Positions 6,442 through 9,392 of a stretch of 9,584 nt of DNA are shown in pieces. Each line of letters begins with the position of its first letter. The stretch's first letter is position 1. A model generated the notes under the pieces. The model did no database searches and was not told the DNA's origin. It saw only the letters and a list, made by a program, of their open reading frames with translations. The translations under genes were made by a program, and so were the position numbers. The stretch lies in the IMG/VR virus record IMGVR_UViG_2671180755_000015. One strand, given 5' to 3'. The stretch is from a virus. Taxonomy: Duplodnaviria > Heunggongvirae > Uroviricota > Caudoviricetes.

Positions 6442-6621
6442 ATGGAAAGAGACCATATCAATAACAAATCACAGAAATTACAGGCTCGCGCCCCGCATGA
6501 AGTTGTTGAGGCTATGGAGCAAGTAAAAGAAACAGGCGAGAGCACTGCGCAATTTATCGTTACAGCCATGCGAGGCGAGATCAAACGCCGCCAGCGCCGT
6601 AAGGCCAAAGAATCAGAATAA
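6442..6621 (+). CDS. Small ribbon-helix-helix-like protein (59 aa), candidate transcriptional regulator
   Basis: Not in the ORF track (below 60 aa). ATG at 6442 preceded by AGGGAA. Translation: MERDHINNKSQKLQARAPHEVVEAMEQVKETGESTAQFIVTAMRGEIKRRQRRKAKESE. The pattern (short strand, helix, turn, helix, basic tail) resembles RHH regulators. Divergent from the replication operon. Confidence 0.5.
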   Translation: MERDHINNKSQKLQARAPHEVVEAMEQVKETGESTAQFIVTAMRGEIKRRQRRKAKESE

Positions 6622-6678
6622 TCACTATCAGCGCCGTGGTGTGAGGTACTACGGCGCATTGCTTTACAGGGCAGTATC

Positions 6679-6906
6679 ATGACCAACAACACACTATCAC
6701 CAATACAAGACACGCAAACGCAAGATGATGAAATCATCCGGCAAAGGCAGTCAGAAGCCTGCGCCAGAGTTGAGGAAGAACTAACCAGAACAAAAATACC
6801 ACCACCAGCGCCGCGCTTAGTGCCACCAGAAAAATTTGCCCTTGAAGATTTTGTCGATAAATACCCACGGCGGTTAAAAGCCACTAAAAACCGACCGCCT
6901 GGCTGA
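6679..6906 (+). CDS. Hypothetical proline-rich protein (75 aa)
   Basis: ATG at 6679 with upstream AGGG. Followed by a plus-strand terminator at 6985-7013. No family recognised. Confidence 0.4.
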   Translation: MTNNTLSPIQDTQTQDDEIIRQRQSEACARVEEELTRTKIPPPAPRLVPPEKFALEDFVDKYPRRLKATKNRPPG

Positions 6907-6984
6907 TAGCCTTGTCCACCAGCCGTAAATGTGGCATTGTCGGCGATGCTCATGCGTTGGGGATAACGCGAAATTTGTGTCGAA

Positions 6985-7013
6985 GGGCCACCGTGACAGG
7001 TGGCCTTTTCTTT
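6985..7013 (+). terminator. Intrinsic terminator (plus strand)
   Basis: Stem GGCCACC / GGTGGCC with loop GTGACA, followed by TTTTCTTT. No U-run on the minus strand. Confidence 0.7.
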
Positions 7014-7030
7014 GCCTGTTATCCGGCAAT

Positions 7031-7060
7031 TGTGGCGCTTCTTCACACAGTTGATATAAT
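7031..7060 (+). promoter_or_regulatory. Candidate extended -10 promoter (TGaTATAAT)
   Basis: TG at 7052-7053 and TATAAT at 7055-7060. The -35 region is weak (GTGGCG). Confidence 0.4.
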
Positions 7061-7066
7061 TCCCCT

Positions 7067-7140
7067 GCACTGATCCAATTTTTTCGCAGCAGGTTAATTG
7101 TTCGCAAGGGCGCTCCGGCAACGGGGCGCTTTTTGTTTTT
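7067..7140 (+). ncRNA. Candidate small RNA (~70 nt) from the extended -10 promoter to the terminator
   Basis: Defined only by the promoter at 7052-7060 and the terminator at 7110-7140. Contains an internal CCTGC...GCAGG stem. No coding potential. Hypothetical. Confidence 0.3.
7110..7140 (+). terminator. Intrinsic terminator with GNRA tetraloop (plus strand)
   Basis: Stem GCGCTCCG / CGGGGCGC (one G-U pair), loop GCAA, followed by TTTTTGTTTTT. Confidence 0.75.
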
Positions 7141-7252
7141 ACCCACCAGCACAATAAAAATCTTCATTTTCCATTTTTGTAAAATTTCATGCTTTCCGGA
7201 CGACGGGCCATATGTCATTTTTTAGCAGAAGATTTTGCCTTGCTGGTGGGTA
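7140..7252. repeat. Perfect 12-bp inverted repeat (TACCCACCAGCA / TGCTGGTGGGTA) flanking an 89-bp AT-rich spacer
   Basis: Arms at 7140-7151 and 7241-7252 are exact reverse complements. Confidence 0.6.
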
Positions 7253-7298
7253 GCTTCTCGGTTAACACGATGTACCGTATAATCAGCACCGCGTGTGG

Positions 7299-7877
7299 TT
7301 ACTGAATACGCTCACCAAAGTAAAACTCAGGCTGATATTCACGTATCAGCCTTTTTTCTTCTTCCTCCAGTTCACGTTTTTTGCGCTTACATGCCTGTAG
7401 CGCCCTCCCCTTCTCGCTGGCACTTATCTGATATTGCTCTTTACGGCGGGAAAAATCCTGTAATGCACCCCACGGGATACCATAAGCCCCCGTTTTTCTG
7501 ATACCCGGTATCACATTTCTGAATACCCAGTTACTGAAACGATGGGCGAATGTGCCTTGCGTCGTTGCTTTGCGGCTACGGGCTATTAGTTTGTAGAAAC
7601 CTGACTCAGAGATAATGCTCATATTCTGATTTCCTCCTGGGGTGTAAGTTAAATTTACTCCCTTTTCATCATCATCAAGCATCTGCAACGCCGTACGCGA
7701 ATTGGTCAGTTCCAGCGCAGCGCAGACATCCTTTGCAACAAACCACGGATCGCCGTTCAGATACACCACGCGAACGTTCACACTATCAAAGCGCAGAACG
7801 ACCAGATCACGAAAATCACAGAATTTTTTTACATGACGTGCGTCACCCTTGCCCGTCACGGCAATATTTTTATTCAT
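7299..7877 (-). CDS. Bro-N domain protein (antirepressor-like), 192 aa
   Basis: N-terminal region matches the Bro-N signature (VRVVYLNGDPWFVAKDVCAALEL ... ISESGFYKLIARSRKATTQGTFAHRFSNWVFRNVIPGIRKTGAYG). C-terminal ~60 aa is highly charged. ATG at 7875-7877 with SD GAGGT. Confidence 0.8.
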   Translation of the reverse strand: MNKNIAVTGKGDARHVKKFCDFRDLVVLRFDSVNVRVVYLNGDPWFVAKDVCAALELTNSRTALQMLDDDEKGVNLTYTPGGNQNMSIISESGFYKLIARSRKATTQGTFAHRFSNWVFRNVIPGIRKTGAYGIPWGALQDFSRRKEQYQISASEKGRALQACKRKKRELEEEEKRLIREYQPEFYFGERIQ

Positions 7878-7936: not shown

Positions 7937-8140
7937 TTAGTGGGGATTGGCTTGTTCTCGTTGTTTATCTAACCATGCTTCTACATCTCTACGGTGCCAG
8001 GTATGTCGTCGTCCAATTCTGAACGGCTGAGGAAAACCATTATTCTCATCTTTCCAGAAATTGATGAATGCACTCATTGCTCCATATCGCAAGATTTTCA
8101 TTACGTCTTTAGTAAATAAAATATCTTCATTGGTATTCAT
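7937..8140 (-). CDS. AlpA-family (excisionase-like HTH) DNA-binding regulator
   Basis: Matches the AlpA pattern (ILFTKDVMKILRYGAMSAFINFWKDENNGFPQPFRIGRRHTWHRRDVEAWL). The ORF track starts at 8161, but the in-frame ATG at 8138-8140 has a strong SD (GAGGAGG at 8 nt), giving 67 aa. Lies 13 nt after the integrase stop. Confidence 0.75.
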   Translation of the reverse strand: MNTNEDILFTKDVMKILRYGAMSAFINFWKDENNGFPQPFRIGRRHTWHRRDVEAWLDKQREQANPH

Positions 8141-8153
8141 TTGCTGAACCTCC

Positions 8154-9392
8154 TCAACCATTTACTACTCTTAAACCTTTCATACCACCGGATCTATTAA
8201 TTACCCCTTTTCTCGCATCATCAAAAAAATCACCGACCCATTGCATCATGATCTTACGCTGTTCTAGATAAGTAGTTCTATTATAAACATCTCTTATTTT
8301 ATCACCACTTTTATGCGCCAATGCAGCCTCGATTACATCGGGGTTAAATCCCTCCTCATTTAAAAGCGTACTCCACATTGAACGAAAACCATGTAACGTT
8401 ACAATCCCTTTGAACTTGCTGGCAGCAATTGGGGTCTTGATAGTATTCCTCCCCATAGGCGCATCTTTTGTTCTGGAGGAAAAAAACACATAACGCCCTC
8501 TTTTTATTTCCTGCATTGTTCTGAGGATACTAATAGCCTGTGATGACAAGGGAACAACATGTTCACGATGGCATTTCATTTTATGCGCGGGGATAATCCA
8601 CAAGCCAGAATCAAAATCAATCTCTGACCACTCTGCTTTAATCGCCTCACCTGGCCTGACCATTGTCAATATCTGGAATAAAAGTGCATTATGAGCTATT
8701 TGATAGGTATGAGGCACACTATCCCACCAGCTCAGAAATTCAGGCAATCTTTCAACAGGTAGTGCTGCTAATGATTTATTTTTCTTTCCTGTGAATGCAG
8801 TCTTTATCTTAAGTAATGGATTTGTTTTCAATGTTCCACAATTTACAGCATAATTCATAATTTCATTTAATCTTGATATTAATTTTTTTTGCAACGCATT
8901 CTTATCGGATACGGCATCCAGAGCATTAATAGCTACTGGTGCTGTAATTTTTTCTATACTGTACTTACCAAAGAAAGGAACAAGATATTTGTATACTTCA
9001 TATTCGATATTATACAGCGTAGGTTTCCGCAATTCAGATCCCTTTTTAAAAGCGAACCATGCATTAGCAACAGCTTCAAATGTCTGTAGATTTTTTAGTG
9101 ACATCTCAATTTTACGATTTTTCTTCTCCGTCACTGGATCAACTCCACGTGCAATCATTCGCCGAAGTTCATCACGTACTTCCCGTGCTTCCGCGAGTGA
9201 GAATTCAGGAAAACGTCCTATCGTGTATGTCTGCCGTTTCTTCGTTATCGGATGGCTATAACGGAAACGCCACACTTTCCCACCGGCTTTACTCACATTC
9301 AGCAATAAACCGAACCCATCATAAACGGCATAGTCCTTTTCACGTGGTTTCATCCCCTTAACTTCAGTCACGGTTAATGGCTTTACCGACAT
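8154..9392 (-). CDS. int: Tyrosine site-specific integrase (P4-type)
   Basis: 412 aa. C-terminal catalytic-domain signatures are present (TMVRPGEA, HREHVVPL, TLHGFRSMWST, and a tyrosine in DVYNRTTY). The N-terminal domain is consistent with the arm-binding region of P4-family integrases. ATG at 9390-9392 with SD GAGGG. Confidence 0.9.
   Translation of the reverse strand: MSVKPLTVTEVKGMKPREKDYAVYDGFGLLLNVSKAGGKVWRFRYSHPITKKRQTYTIGRFPEFSLAEAREVRDELRRMIARGVDPVTEKKNRKIEMSLKNLQTFEAVANAWFAFKKGSELRKPTLYNIEYEVYKYLVPFFGKYSIEKITAPVAINALDAVSDKNALQKKLISRLNEIMNYAVNCGTLKTNPLLKIKTAFTGKKNKSLAALPVERLPEFLSWWDSVPHTYQIAHNALLFQILTMVRPGEAIKAEWSEIDFDSGLWIIPAHKMKCHREHVVPLSSQAISILRTMQEIKRGRYVFFSSRTKDAPMGRNTIKTPIAASKFKGIVTLHGFRSMWSTLLNEEGFNPDVIEAALAHKSGDKIRDVYNRTTYLEQRKIMMQWVGDFFDDARKGVINRSGGMKGLRVVNG

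Follow-up and report, generated by a model that had tools for sequence, protein, structure and literature searches.

A candidate small RNA gene converging on the activator side of Escherichia phage-inducible chromosomal islands

Introduction

Does the non-coding gap between the plus-strand small genes of an Escherichia phage satellite and the gene that converges on them encode an RNA of its own and, if so, what could this RNA do? The question is raised by IMG/VR record IMGVR_UViG_2671180755_000015, a stretch of 9,584 nt that is referred to in its entirety as the window, and that carries a satellite belonging to the phage-inducible chromosomal islands (PICIs) of Gram-negative bacteria. An earlier note, made from the letters of this stretch, had proposed a candidate small RNA (sRNA) at positions 7031-7140. 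The computational analysis reported here indicates that this candidate is probably an unannotated small non-coding RNA gene of an Escherichia family of Gram-negative PICIs. The RNA itself is new and unannotated; its kind, a small RNA of a mobile element, is familiar.

A promoter and an intrinsic terminator delimit a predicted RNA of about 73 nt

The candidate begins with an extended -10 element, TGATATAAT (TGaTATAAT), which is read directly on the plus strand at 7052-7060, as the earlier note had it, and is called P2 hereafter. This promoter has no consensus -35 element, the best approximation being TTGTGG at 7030-7035 with a 19-nt spacer, and P2 would therefore need to act as an extended -10 promoter. 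Extended -10 promoters can function without a -35 element. The motif alone is at chance level: TGNTATAAT occurs once in the 9.6 kb where 0.42 occurrences are expected, and 67 of 200 shuffled sequences contain at least one. The weight of the -10 box rests on its context and conservation, not on the motif itself.

Promoter geometry and terminator together predict a non-coding plus-strand transcript at 7067-7140 (72-74 nt, about 73 nt), whose start would be G7067, 7 nt past the -10 element, and whose 3' end would fall within the U-run. The intrinsic terminator, T2 (7106-7140, plus strand), consists of an 8-bp GC stem in which G7110-G7117 pair with C7122-C7129, a GCAA loop (7118-7121), outer A/G-U pairs and the U tail TTTTTGTTTTT (7130-7140); stem, loop and tail are those originally described. 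Directly 5' of this terminator lies a conserved and mostly unpaired core, CGCAGYAGGTTAATTGTTCRC (7085-7105, plus strand), a candidate seed or contact region for Hfq or ProQ. The claim that no plausible open reading frame (ORF) separates promoter and terminator also holds, as there is no ATG within 7061-7140 and the sole TTG frame extends beyond the terminator. On the plus strand, 7066-7141 folds at -23.9 kcal/mol (z -1.8), versus -13.9 kcal/mol (z +0.2) for its complement, and a U-run follows the T2 hairpin on the plus strand only, none being found on the minus strand in the window.

Near-consensus -10 boxes recur in unrelated 5' variants

The strongest argument for a transcript start at this place is the recurrence of -10 boxes in homologues whose 5' parts are unrelated. 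A 28-nt core pattern drawn from the window was used to retrieve 114 IMG/VR stretches, and the promoter survey covered 78 distinct modules of 252 nt from 152 loci. A near-consensus -10 lies at an equivalent distance in 76 of the 78, in the form of TG-n-TATAAT (50 modules), TATAAT (16) or TATCAT (10), the last two modules having a weakened TATAAC. Four unrelated 5' classes share the 3' core and terminator, each with a near-consensus -10 located 25-55 nt upstream of the core. Type A is the variant of the window (TGaTATAAT). Type B has TTCACT-17-TATAAT, the only promoter-like site returned by a scan of 1.3 kb of one such locus (L005), while in type C (TTGCCC-17-TATCAT) the promoter and 5' part of unit 1, a neighbouring unit described below, are fused to the core and terminator of the present one, unit 2. 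Type D, found in locus L183, has its own extended -10, TGgTAGAAT. The core at 7085-7105 is common to variants A, B and C, and partly to D. By our rough estimate, the chance of encountering one such box in a 40-nt window is about 0.12, and that of encountering it in three independent classes about 0.002.

A palindrome, TGTGGCG-CTT-CGCCACA, is present between the -35 and -10 positions of many homologues. It was considered as an operator and dropped, its right half being the most variable part of the conserved block.

Substitutions in the terminator preserve a plus-strand helix

When 18 distinct type-A sequences are folded together with RNAalifold, the terminator helix is the sole predicted structure; it is 99.2% paired and includes one compensatory double change from C-G to A-U. 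A second compensatory change, from G-C to A-U, affects the loop-closing pair of T2 in L183. Several single C-to-U changes retain G·U pairs in T2, where the other strand would have A·C mismatches. Two G-to-A changes behave in the opposite way, leaving a C·A mismatch on the plus strand and a G·U wobble on the other one, and count against reading the RNA from the plus strand. Overall, the substitution pattern of the terminator favours a plus-strand RNA. Promoter and terminator are thus both maintained in related elements, the former by its -10 box and the latter by compensatory and G·U-preserving changes, which is the conservation that the earlier note had suggested looking for.

Two structural details of that note fare less well. 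A special role of the GNRA loop, to which it had given prominence, is not supported: GCAA is swapped for TTATC, ATATC, ATTTC or GTAA in homologues, and the GNRA loop is not conserved because an alternative T2 stem, GCGGCUCC/GGGGCCGC, carries UUAUC, AUAUC or AUUUC loops. The stem between CCTGC (7064-7068) and GCAGG (7089-7093) does exist in the window but, after a test in two registers, was discarded: it is 88.9% paired without covariation, is broken in 10 of 90 cells and does not appear in the consensus fold of RNAalifold, and most of its 5' arm precedes G7067, where the transcript is predicted to start. What precedes the hairpin and its U tail in the homologues is instead a conserved stretch, CGCAGYAGGUUAAUUGUUCRC, that is unpaired in most predicted folds.

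Taken together, the sequence evidence comprises a sigma-70 promoter and a covariation-supported intrinsic terminator on the same strand, and no coding potential, i.e., the features of an sRNA gene. That a discrete RNA is made from this unit can be considered fairly probable. The proposal of a regulatory sRNA hence stands as far as an independent, conservation-backed non-coding unit of the plus strand is concerned, whereas the regulatory role is conjectural, no target having been found in the searches reported below.

Conservation and distribution of the module

P2 and T2 belong to a larger conserved non-coding block of 236 nt (6905-7140, plus strand), which runs from the stop codon of a 75-aa ORF to the end of the T2 U-run. 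Among 60 distinct type-A loci, column entropy is 0.1-0.7 within 6905-7140 and 1.1-1.6 in both flanks, and the edges of the block are sharp, with the stop codon of the 75-aa ORF on one side and the last T of the tail on the other. The block is therefore more conserved than the genes that flank it, the reverse of what the earlier note had named as damaging to the candidate. The invariance of the core (7085-7105) is partly imposed, as the loci were retrieved by a pattern taken from it.

A blastn search with 6980-7300 gave matches in 437 of 5426 complete E. coli genomes (about 8%), with up to 6 matches per genome, and most of them span 6980-7141 only, i.e., end with the U-run. Among 185,579 GTDB species representatives the core pattern has one match, in Escherichia ruysiae, and there is therefore no wider covariation set. 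Neither pattern nor similarity search found a match to the unit in phage genomes. A search of plasmids returned one full-length match of 87% identity, in a part of an E. coli plasmid record that carries the annotation of an Icd-like protein gene, plus one short partial match. As far as the exact 28-nt pattern can tell, the unit appears to be confined to Escherichia. It is present in the model satellite EcCICFT073, which carries the block at 87% identity and where the predicted RNA corresponds to NC_004431.1 complement(1,380,008..1,380,081). No RNA feature is annotated at the module in the RefSeq records examined, and the literature searched (PICIs combined with sRNA or antisense, CFT073 sRNA catalogues, Esr41, the Pas sRNAs and sequence strings) does not describe this RNA.

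A possible countertranscript of activator-side transcripts

What the RNA might do is suggested by its position. The candidate is convergent with its neighbour in nearly all of about 100 distinct loci examined, and in most of them the distance from the convergent stop codon to the U tail is either 15-24 nt, for alpA-like or Ant genes, or 138-158 nt, for Bro-N or another alpA allele; in the remaining loci the nearest convergent ORF is several hundred nt from the U tail. With the U-run on the plus strand only, leftward transcripts are not expected to stop efficiently at T2 and would thus become complementary to the small RNA. Helper late transcripts also run leftward here, given the minus-strand orientation of the interrupted terminase gene.

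The following scheme can be proposed from this arrangement. P2, an extended -10 promoter that would be -35-independent and constitutive, would start an RNA near G7067, and T2 would end it at about 73 nt; the 3' half of this RNA would expose the unpaired, A/U-rich sequence GCAGYAGGUUAAUUGUUC, followed by the hairpin and the U tail. As the second of two tandem promoter-terminator units at the end of the rightward unit, it would be made head-on to int-alpA-(bro/ant) and would be perfectly complementary to any leftward RNA running beyond the convergent stop codon. Duplex formation, RNase III-type cleavage and the activity of the head-on promoter would then lower the activator-side transcript, as well as read-through towards the operon for the Icd-like protein, primase and capsid. 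Unit 1 and the stacked terminators would join in limiting activator-side expression and read-through, and the island would thereby be kept quiet until helper phage induction. That the RNA is made and acts chiefly as such a countertranscript is possible, and is put forward here as the likeliest of the readings considered, though a tentative one.

Several observations weigh against it. A strong intrinsic terminator of the minus strand (7923-7903) lies between the alpA-like gene and the Bro-N gene, so that the module would be within reach only of Bro-N transcripts and of helper late ones that are antiterminated; for the same reason Bro-N requires antitermination or a promoter of its own. The predicted RNA has no overlap with the coding sequence of the convergent gene, and antisense action therefore depends on read-through at the 3' end of that gene. 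In addition, some T2 variants (CACAAAGG...) would yield a short UUUGUG tract on the minus strand, and leftward RNAs may stop at the hairpin in variants of this type. The strong conservation of the block could partly stem from recombination between mosaic elements rather than from selection. Many satellites with a YnfO-like gene have unit 1 only and about 45% also have unit 2; with about half of them lacking it, unit 2 is therefore not essential to the family.

The interest of the candidate RNA comes from the presence of the module in EcCICFT073, a satellite without a known negative regulator. AlpA is the activator of this island and a reporter placed in the ORF after alpA is AlpA-dependent, Gram-negative PICIs being described as transcribed in one direction and without a known repressor (PMC6092414). 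Facing the activator genes is a conserved cassette of opposite orientation, composed of a ribbon-helix-helix-like gene and one or two promoter-terminator units. Should the RNA be produced and act on leftward RNAs, it would account for part of the missing negative control of these satellites; if it is not made, the region is a mere terminator stack of little interest. A broader view holds that this RNA, unit 1 and the ribbon-helix-helix-like YnfO gene form an overlooked rightward "quiescence" cassette of Gram-negative PICIs, whose two countertranscripts would keep read-through, whether driven by AlpA or coming from helper late transcription, out of the operon for replication and packaging, and would have to be overridden upon helper induction. 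This broader view is doubtful.

Other readings of the locus

The main rival to the countertranscript is a trans-acting sRNA, dependent on Hfq or ProQ, in which the core GCAGYAGGUUAAUUGUUC would serve as the seed for host or helper mRNAs and the proximity to alpA would be incidental. Its layout would suit such a function: UUAAUUGUUC directly 5' of the hairpin and the tail UUUUUGUUUUU form an A/U-rich unpaired stretch before a GC-rich terminator with a long U tail, as in Hfq-type trans-acting sRNAs. The unpaired stretch is moreover the most conserved part across the 5' variants, in which the 5' parts are exchanged, although this conservation is inflated by a search pattern taken from the core itself. 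Up to six copies per genome would also fit, and sRNAs of satellites and prophages with trans targets are known, e.g., SviR of the PICI-like element (PLE) (bioRxiv 10.1101/2022.04.08.487710). The target searches, which the earlier note had proposed to direct at the element's own mRNAs and at helper-phage early transcripts, nonetheless came out negative: pairing with the translation start regions of the element is no better than with shuffled sequences (duplex energies, all z > -0.5), no exact complement of at least 10 nt recurs in about 150 satellite loci except A-runs, and no extended complementarity exists in 50,697 phage genomes, the host genome not being included in these screens. A trans-acting sRNA is, on this balance, rather unlikely.

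The null hypothesis is that there is no functional RNA gene at all, and that stacked plus-strand terminators, together with a shared 3' structure for the convergent gene, insulate the repressor-side unit from int-alpA, the -10 being incidental or without consequence. Three terminator-like hairpins of the plus strand do follow each other in series (6986-7005, 7110-7129 and 7329-7352), a single TGNTATAAT per window is what chance gives in a third of the shuffles, and many related satellites have terminator T1, that of unit 1, alone. Besides, T2 lies 15-24 nt past the convergent stop codon in many loci, where the gene's own terminator would be expected to sit; yet with U-runs on the plus strand only it would be a poor terminator for that gene, and T1 already terminates the upstream operon. 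Pure insulation also leaves unexplained the 45 nt of near-invariant sequence 5' of the hairpin and, above all, the well-placed -10 boxes that recur in four unrelated 5' variants (about 0.002 for the three extra ones): it fits the stacked terminators, not the recurring promoters. It is accordingly regarded as unlikely.

A protein-coding explanation would see the plus-strand signals as by-products of a long minus-strand frame that extends the Icd-like gene in an "eta-like" manner, as known from P4, and that would matter through either its product or its being translated. This frame (6042-7154, minus strand) has 370 codons without a stop and spans the module, the plus-strand genes and the promoter region, and in other genomes the PGAP annotation pipeline reports versions of 470-595 aa that start just after alpA; in P4 itself, termination does not occur when eta is translated through the immunity region (PMC10111431). 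The frame nevertheless lacks a coding signature over the module. Variation of the block shows no codon periodicity, with 0.43/0.43/0.40 across the codon positions of the frame and hence no third-position excess, and the window and CFT073 differ, by our count, by about 15 amino-acid substitutions in some 54 codons of this part. The Icd-like model matches the last 44 residues only, and the translation is rich in Cys and Ser and unlike a protein. A well-supported plus-strand gene (YlcI/YnfO N-terminal domain, 72 bits) lies antisense within the frame, the A-rich plus strand accounts for the scarcity of minus-strand stop codons, and the frame is closed just upstream of 7154 in the window. This explanation is therefore very improbable.

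Least credible is a relationship with the P4 CI, P1 C4 and IsrK immunity RNAs, C4/isrK-type matches having been reported in several PICIs and their Bro zones (PMC10111431). The element does have Icd-like and Bro/Ant genes, like P1 immI and the P4 left operon, and the C4 and isrK models match a related locus (L141). The matches in L141 lie elsewhere, however, on the minus strand upstream of an Icd-like gene, and neither model returns a match for the window (E<=1) or for 6890-7160 (E<=10). C4/CI RNAs are moreover cut from a same-strand operon leader, whereas the present unit has a promoter and a terminator to itself and is oriented against the Icd-like/primase operon.

At these same thresholds, Rfam returns only sub-threshold terminator look-alikes, namely isrD, ctRNA_p42d and RNAI. 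The isrD match (RF01388) was rejected, since the alignment is limited to the T1 hairpin of unit 1, skips 25 model positions and scores 21 bits, the threshold being 37. Two inverted repeats are also shared by the module and the start of the Icd-like gene (7103-7112 with 6214-6223, and 7082-7090 with 6284-6292). Pairing between the two regions was discarded: it needs leftward transcription of the module, most homologues either lack the repeats or show no covariation in them, and one of them is in a conserved Icd-like coding sequence, so that chance or homology is the simpler account.

Unit 1 and the YnfO-like gene

The setting given in the earlier note is accurate: the candidate is preceded by a plus-strand terminator (6986-7005) and followed by another plus-strand hairpin (7329-7352) and by the convergent Bro-N gene (7299-7877, minus strand, identified by profile search). 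The preceding terminator is T1, whose stem pairs 6986-6992 with 6999-7005 and precedes a plus-strand U-run. T1 ends unit 1 (6912-7013, plus strand), itself a candidate small RNA unit made of TTGTCC (6912-6917), a 17-nt spacer, CATTGT (6935-6940), about 40 nt and T1. Elsewhere the -35 of unit 1 is TTGCCC and its -10 is TATGAT, TATCAT or TAAGAT, and T1 shows a compensatory change (GGCCACC/GGTGGCC versus GGCGACC/GGTCGCC). The RNA of about 65 nt predicted from this unit folds at -29.6 kcal/mol (z -4.15). At the YnfO loci of other taxa, the gene is followed by terminators, but these loci do not share an evident promoter unit. The hairpin at 7329-7352 combines a 10-bp stem with a T-run on the plus strand and falls within the 3'-terminal part of the coding sequence for Bro-N, and in satellites without unit 2 this sequence is found directly after T1.

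Upstream of unit 1 are the 75-aa ORF (6679-6906, plus strand) and the gene for the YlcI/YnfO-family protein (6442-6621, plus strand), whose N-terminal domain was recognized by profile search and which may be read as a ribbon-helix-helix DNA binder. These two make up all plus-strand coding and the only rightward unit of the satellite. In front of the YnfO-like gene, the divergent promoter region 6331-6441 contains overlapping back-to-back promoter-like sites and three TGGATTCCA/TGGAATCCA palindromes (6343-6351, 6366-6374 and 6411-6419). Together with the YnfO-like protein, this region could decide, as a switch, whether the rightward unit or the Icd-like/primase operon is expressed.

In L183, the unit 2 homologue (4130-4227, plus strand) is divergent; a membrane-protein gene intervenes between it and the YnfO-like gene, but it still adjoins alpA and int. 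In EcCICFT073, the ORF after alpA (L124 9793-10010, plus strand of the record) starts like Bro-N (…ISESGFYKLI) and breaks off exactly at the module edge, a break point that points to the module as a recombination junction of the "Bro zone". In the window, the gap that separates the terminator from the Bro-N stop codon contains a perfect 12-bp inverted repeat, TACCCACCAGCA / TGCTGGTGGGTA, whose arms occupy 7140-7151 and 7241-7252 with 89 nt in between, and which may be the scar of an exchange of Bro-N cassettes.

The satellite and its host prophage

The whole window (L001 2402-11985) is identical to a stretch of the E. coli 2013C-3342 chromosome, where it corresponds to a satellite of about 10 kb located inside the large terminase gene of a lambdoid prophage, in the same orientation as this gene. 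It is therefore assigned to the "helper-embedded PICIs", a type defined earlier (PMC10111431). Apart from the rightward unit, the genes considered here are on the minus strand: the integrase (8154-9392), a small helix-turn-helix AlpA-like protein (annotated at 7937-8140), Bro-N, an Icd-like protein whose domain was identified by profile search (6042-6245), a DUF4222 gene, the primase (3609-5441), an SSB gene and the satellite's own fusion of a ClpP-like protease with the major capsid protein (129-2018). The gene order recurs in other islands as int, alpA, sometimes bro or ant, the module, the plus-strand small genes, Icd-like, DUF4222 and primase/helicase, and these islands occupy different chromosomal sites, with different integrases and replication proteins. 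Directly downstream of the primase gene, about 10 copies of GGTGAACAGT in both orientations (3373-3601) form an array that looks like an iteron-type replication origin; the same array gave spurious matches to microRNA precursors in Rfam.

Comparison with known systems

SviR, of the V. cholerae PLE satellite, is like the candidate a satellite-encoded small RNA, which regulates satellite and helper genes (bioRxiv 10.1101/2022.04.08.487710). It belongs to another satellite family and another host and has no sequence relation to the candidate, and its targets were shown experimentally, whereas the target searches for the candidate were negative.

Within the same class of elements, the int-alpA RNA motif (RF02996) is a structured RNA found in three related loci, at L005 6190-6257, L142 5354-5423 and L145 5491-5561, each time on the minus strand. 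Its place is the int-alpA interval, on the same strand as alpA; it is absent from the window, and is unrelated to the candidate in position and structure.

The P4 CI and P1 C4 RNAs (RF01695) and IsrK (RF01394) are immunity RNAs of satellites and phages that have Icd-like and Bro-network genes, and some related PICIs have them, the C4 and isrK models matching L141 at 2512-2696 (minus strand). They are processed from a same-strand leader and adopt a tRNA-like fold, in contrast to the candidate, which is on the opposite strand, is a predicted primary transcript and matches none of their models.

Lambda OOP and P22 Sar are countertranscripts of a size and layout similar to those predicted here. 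Like the candidate, OOP is short (about 77 nt), has its own constitutive promoter and a strong intrinsic terminator, and is convergent to a regulatory gene, cII. The 3' region of OOP is complementary to the end of the cII mRNA and overlaps the end of the cII coding sequence, whereas the candidate RNA lies 15-158 nt beyond the convergent stop codon, would overlap its neighbour via read-through, shares no sequence similarity with OOP and belongs to a satellite rather than a phage. Sar differs in that it covers the ribosome-binding site of ant, the candidate being at the 3' side of the convergent gene and without similarity to Sar by sequence or covariance model. The likeness is one of setting: Sar is a small countertranscript of the immI immunity region, which also holds the ribbon-helix-helix repressors Arc and Mnt and an antirepressor gene, just as the neighbours of the candidate are a ribbon-helix-helix-like YnfO gene, Ant/Bro genes and small RNA units.

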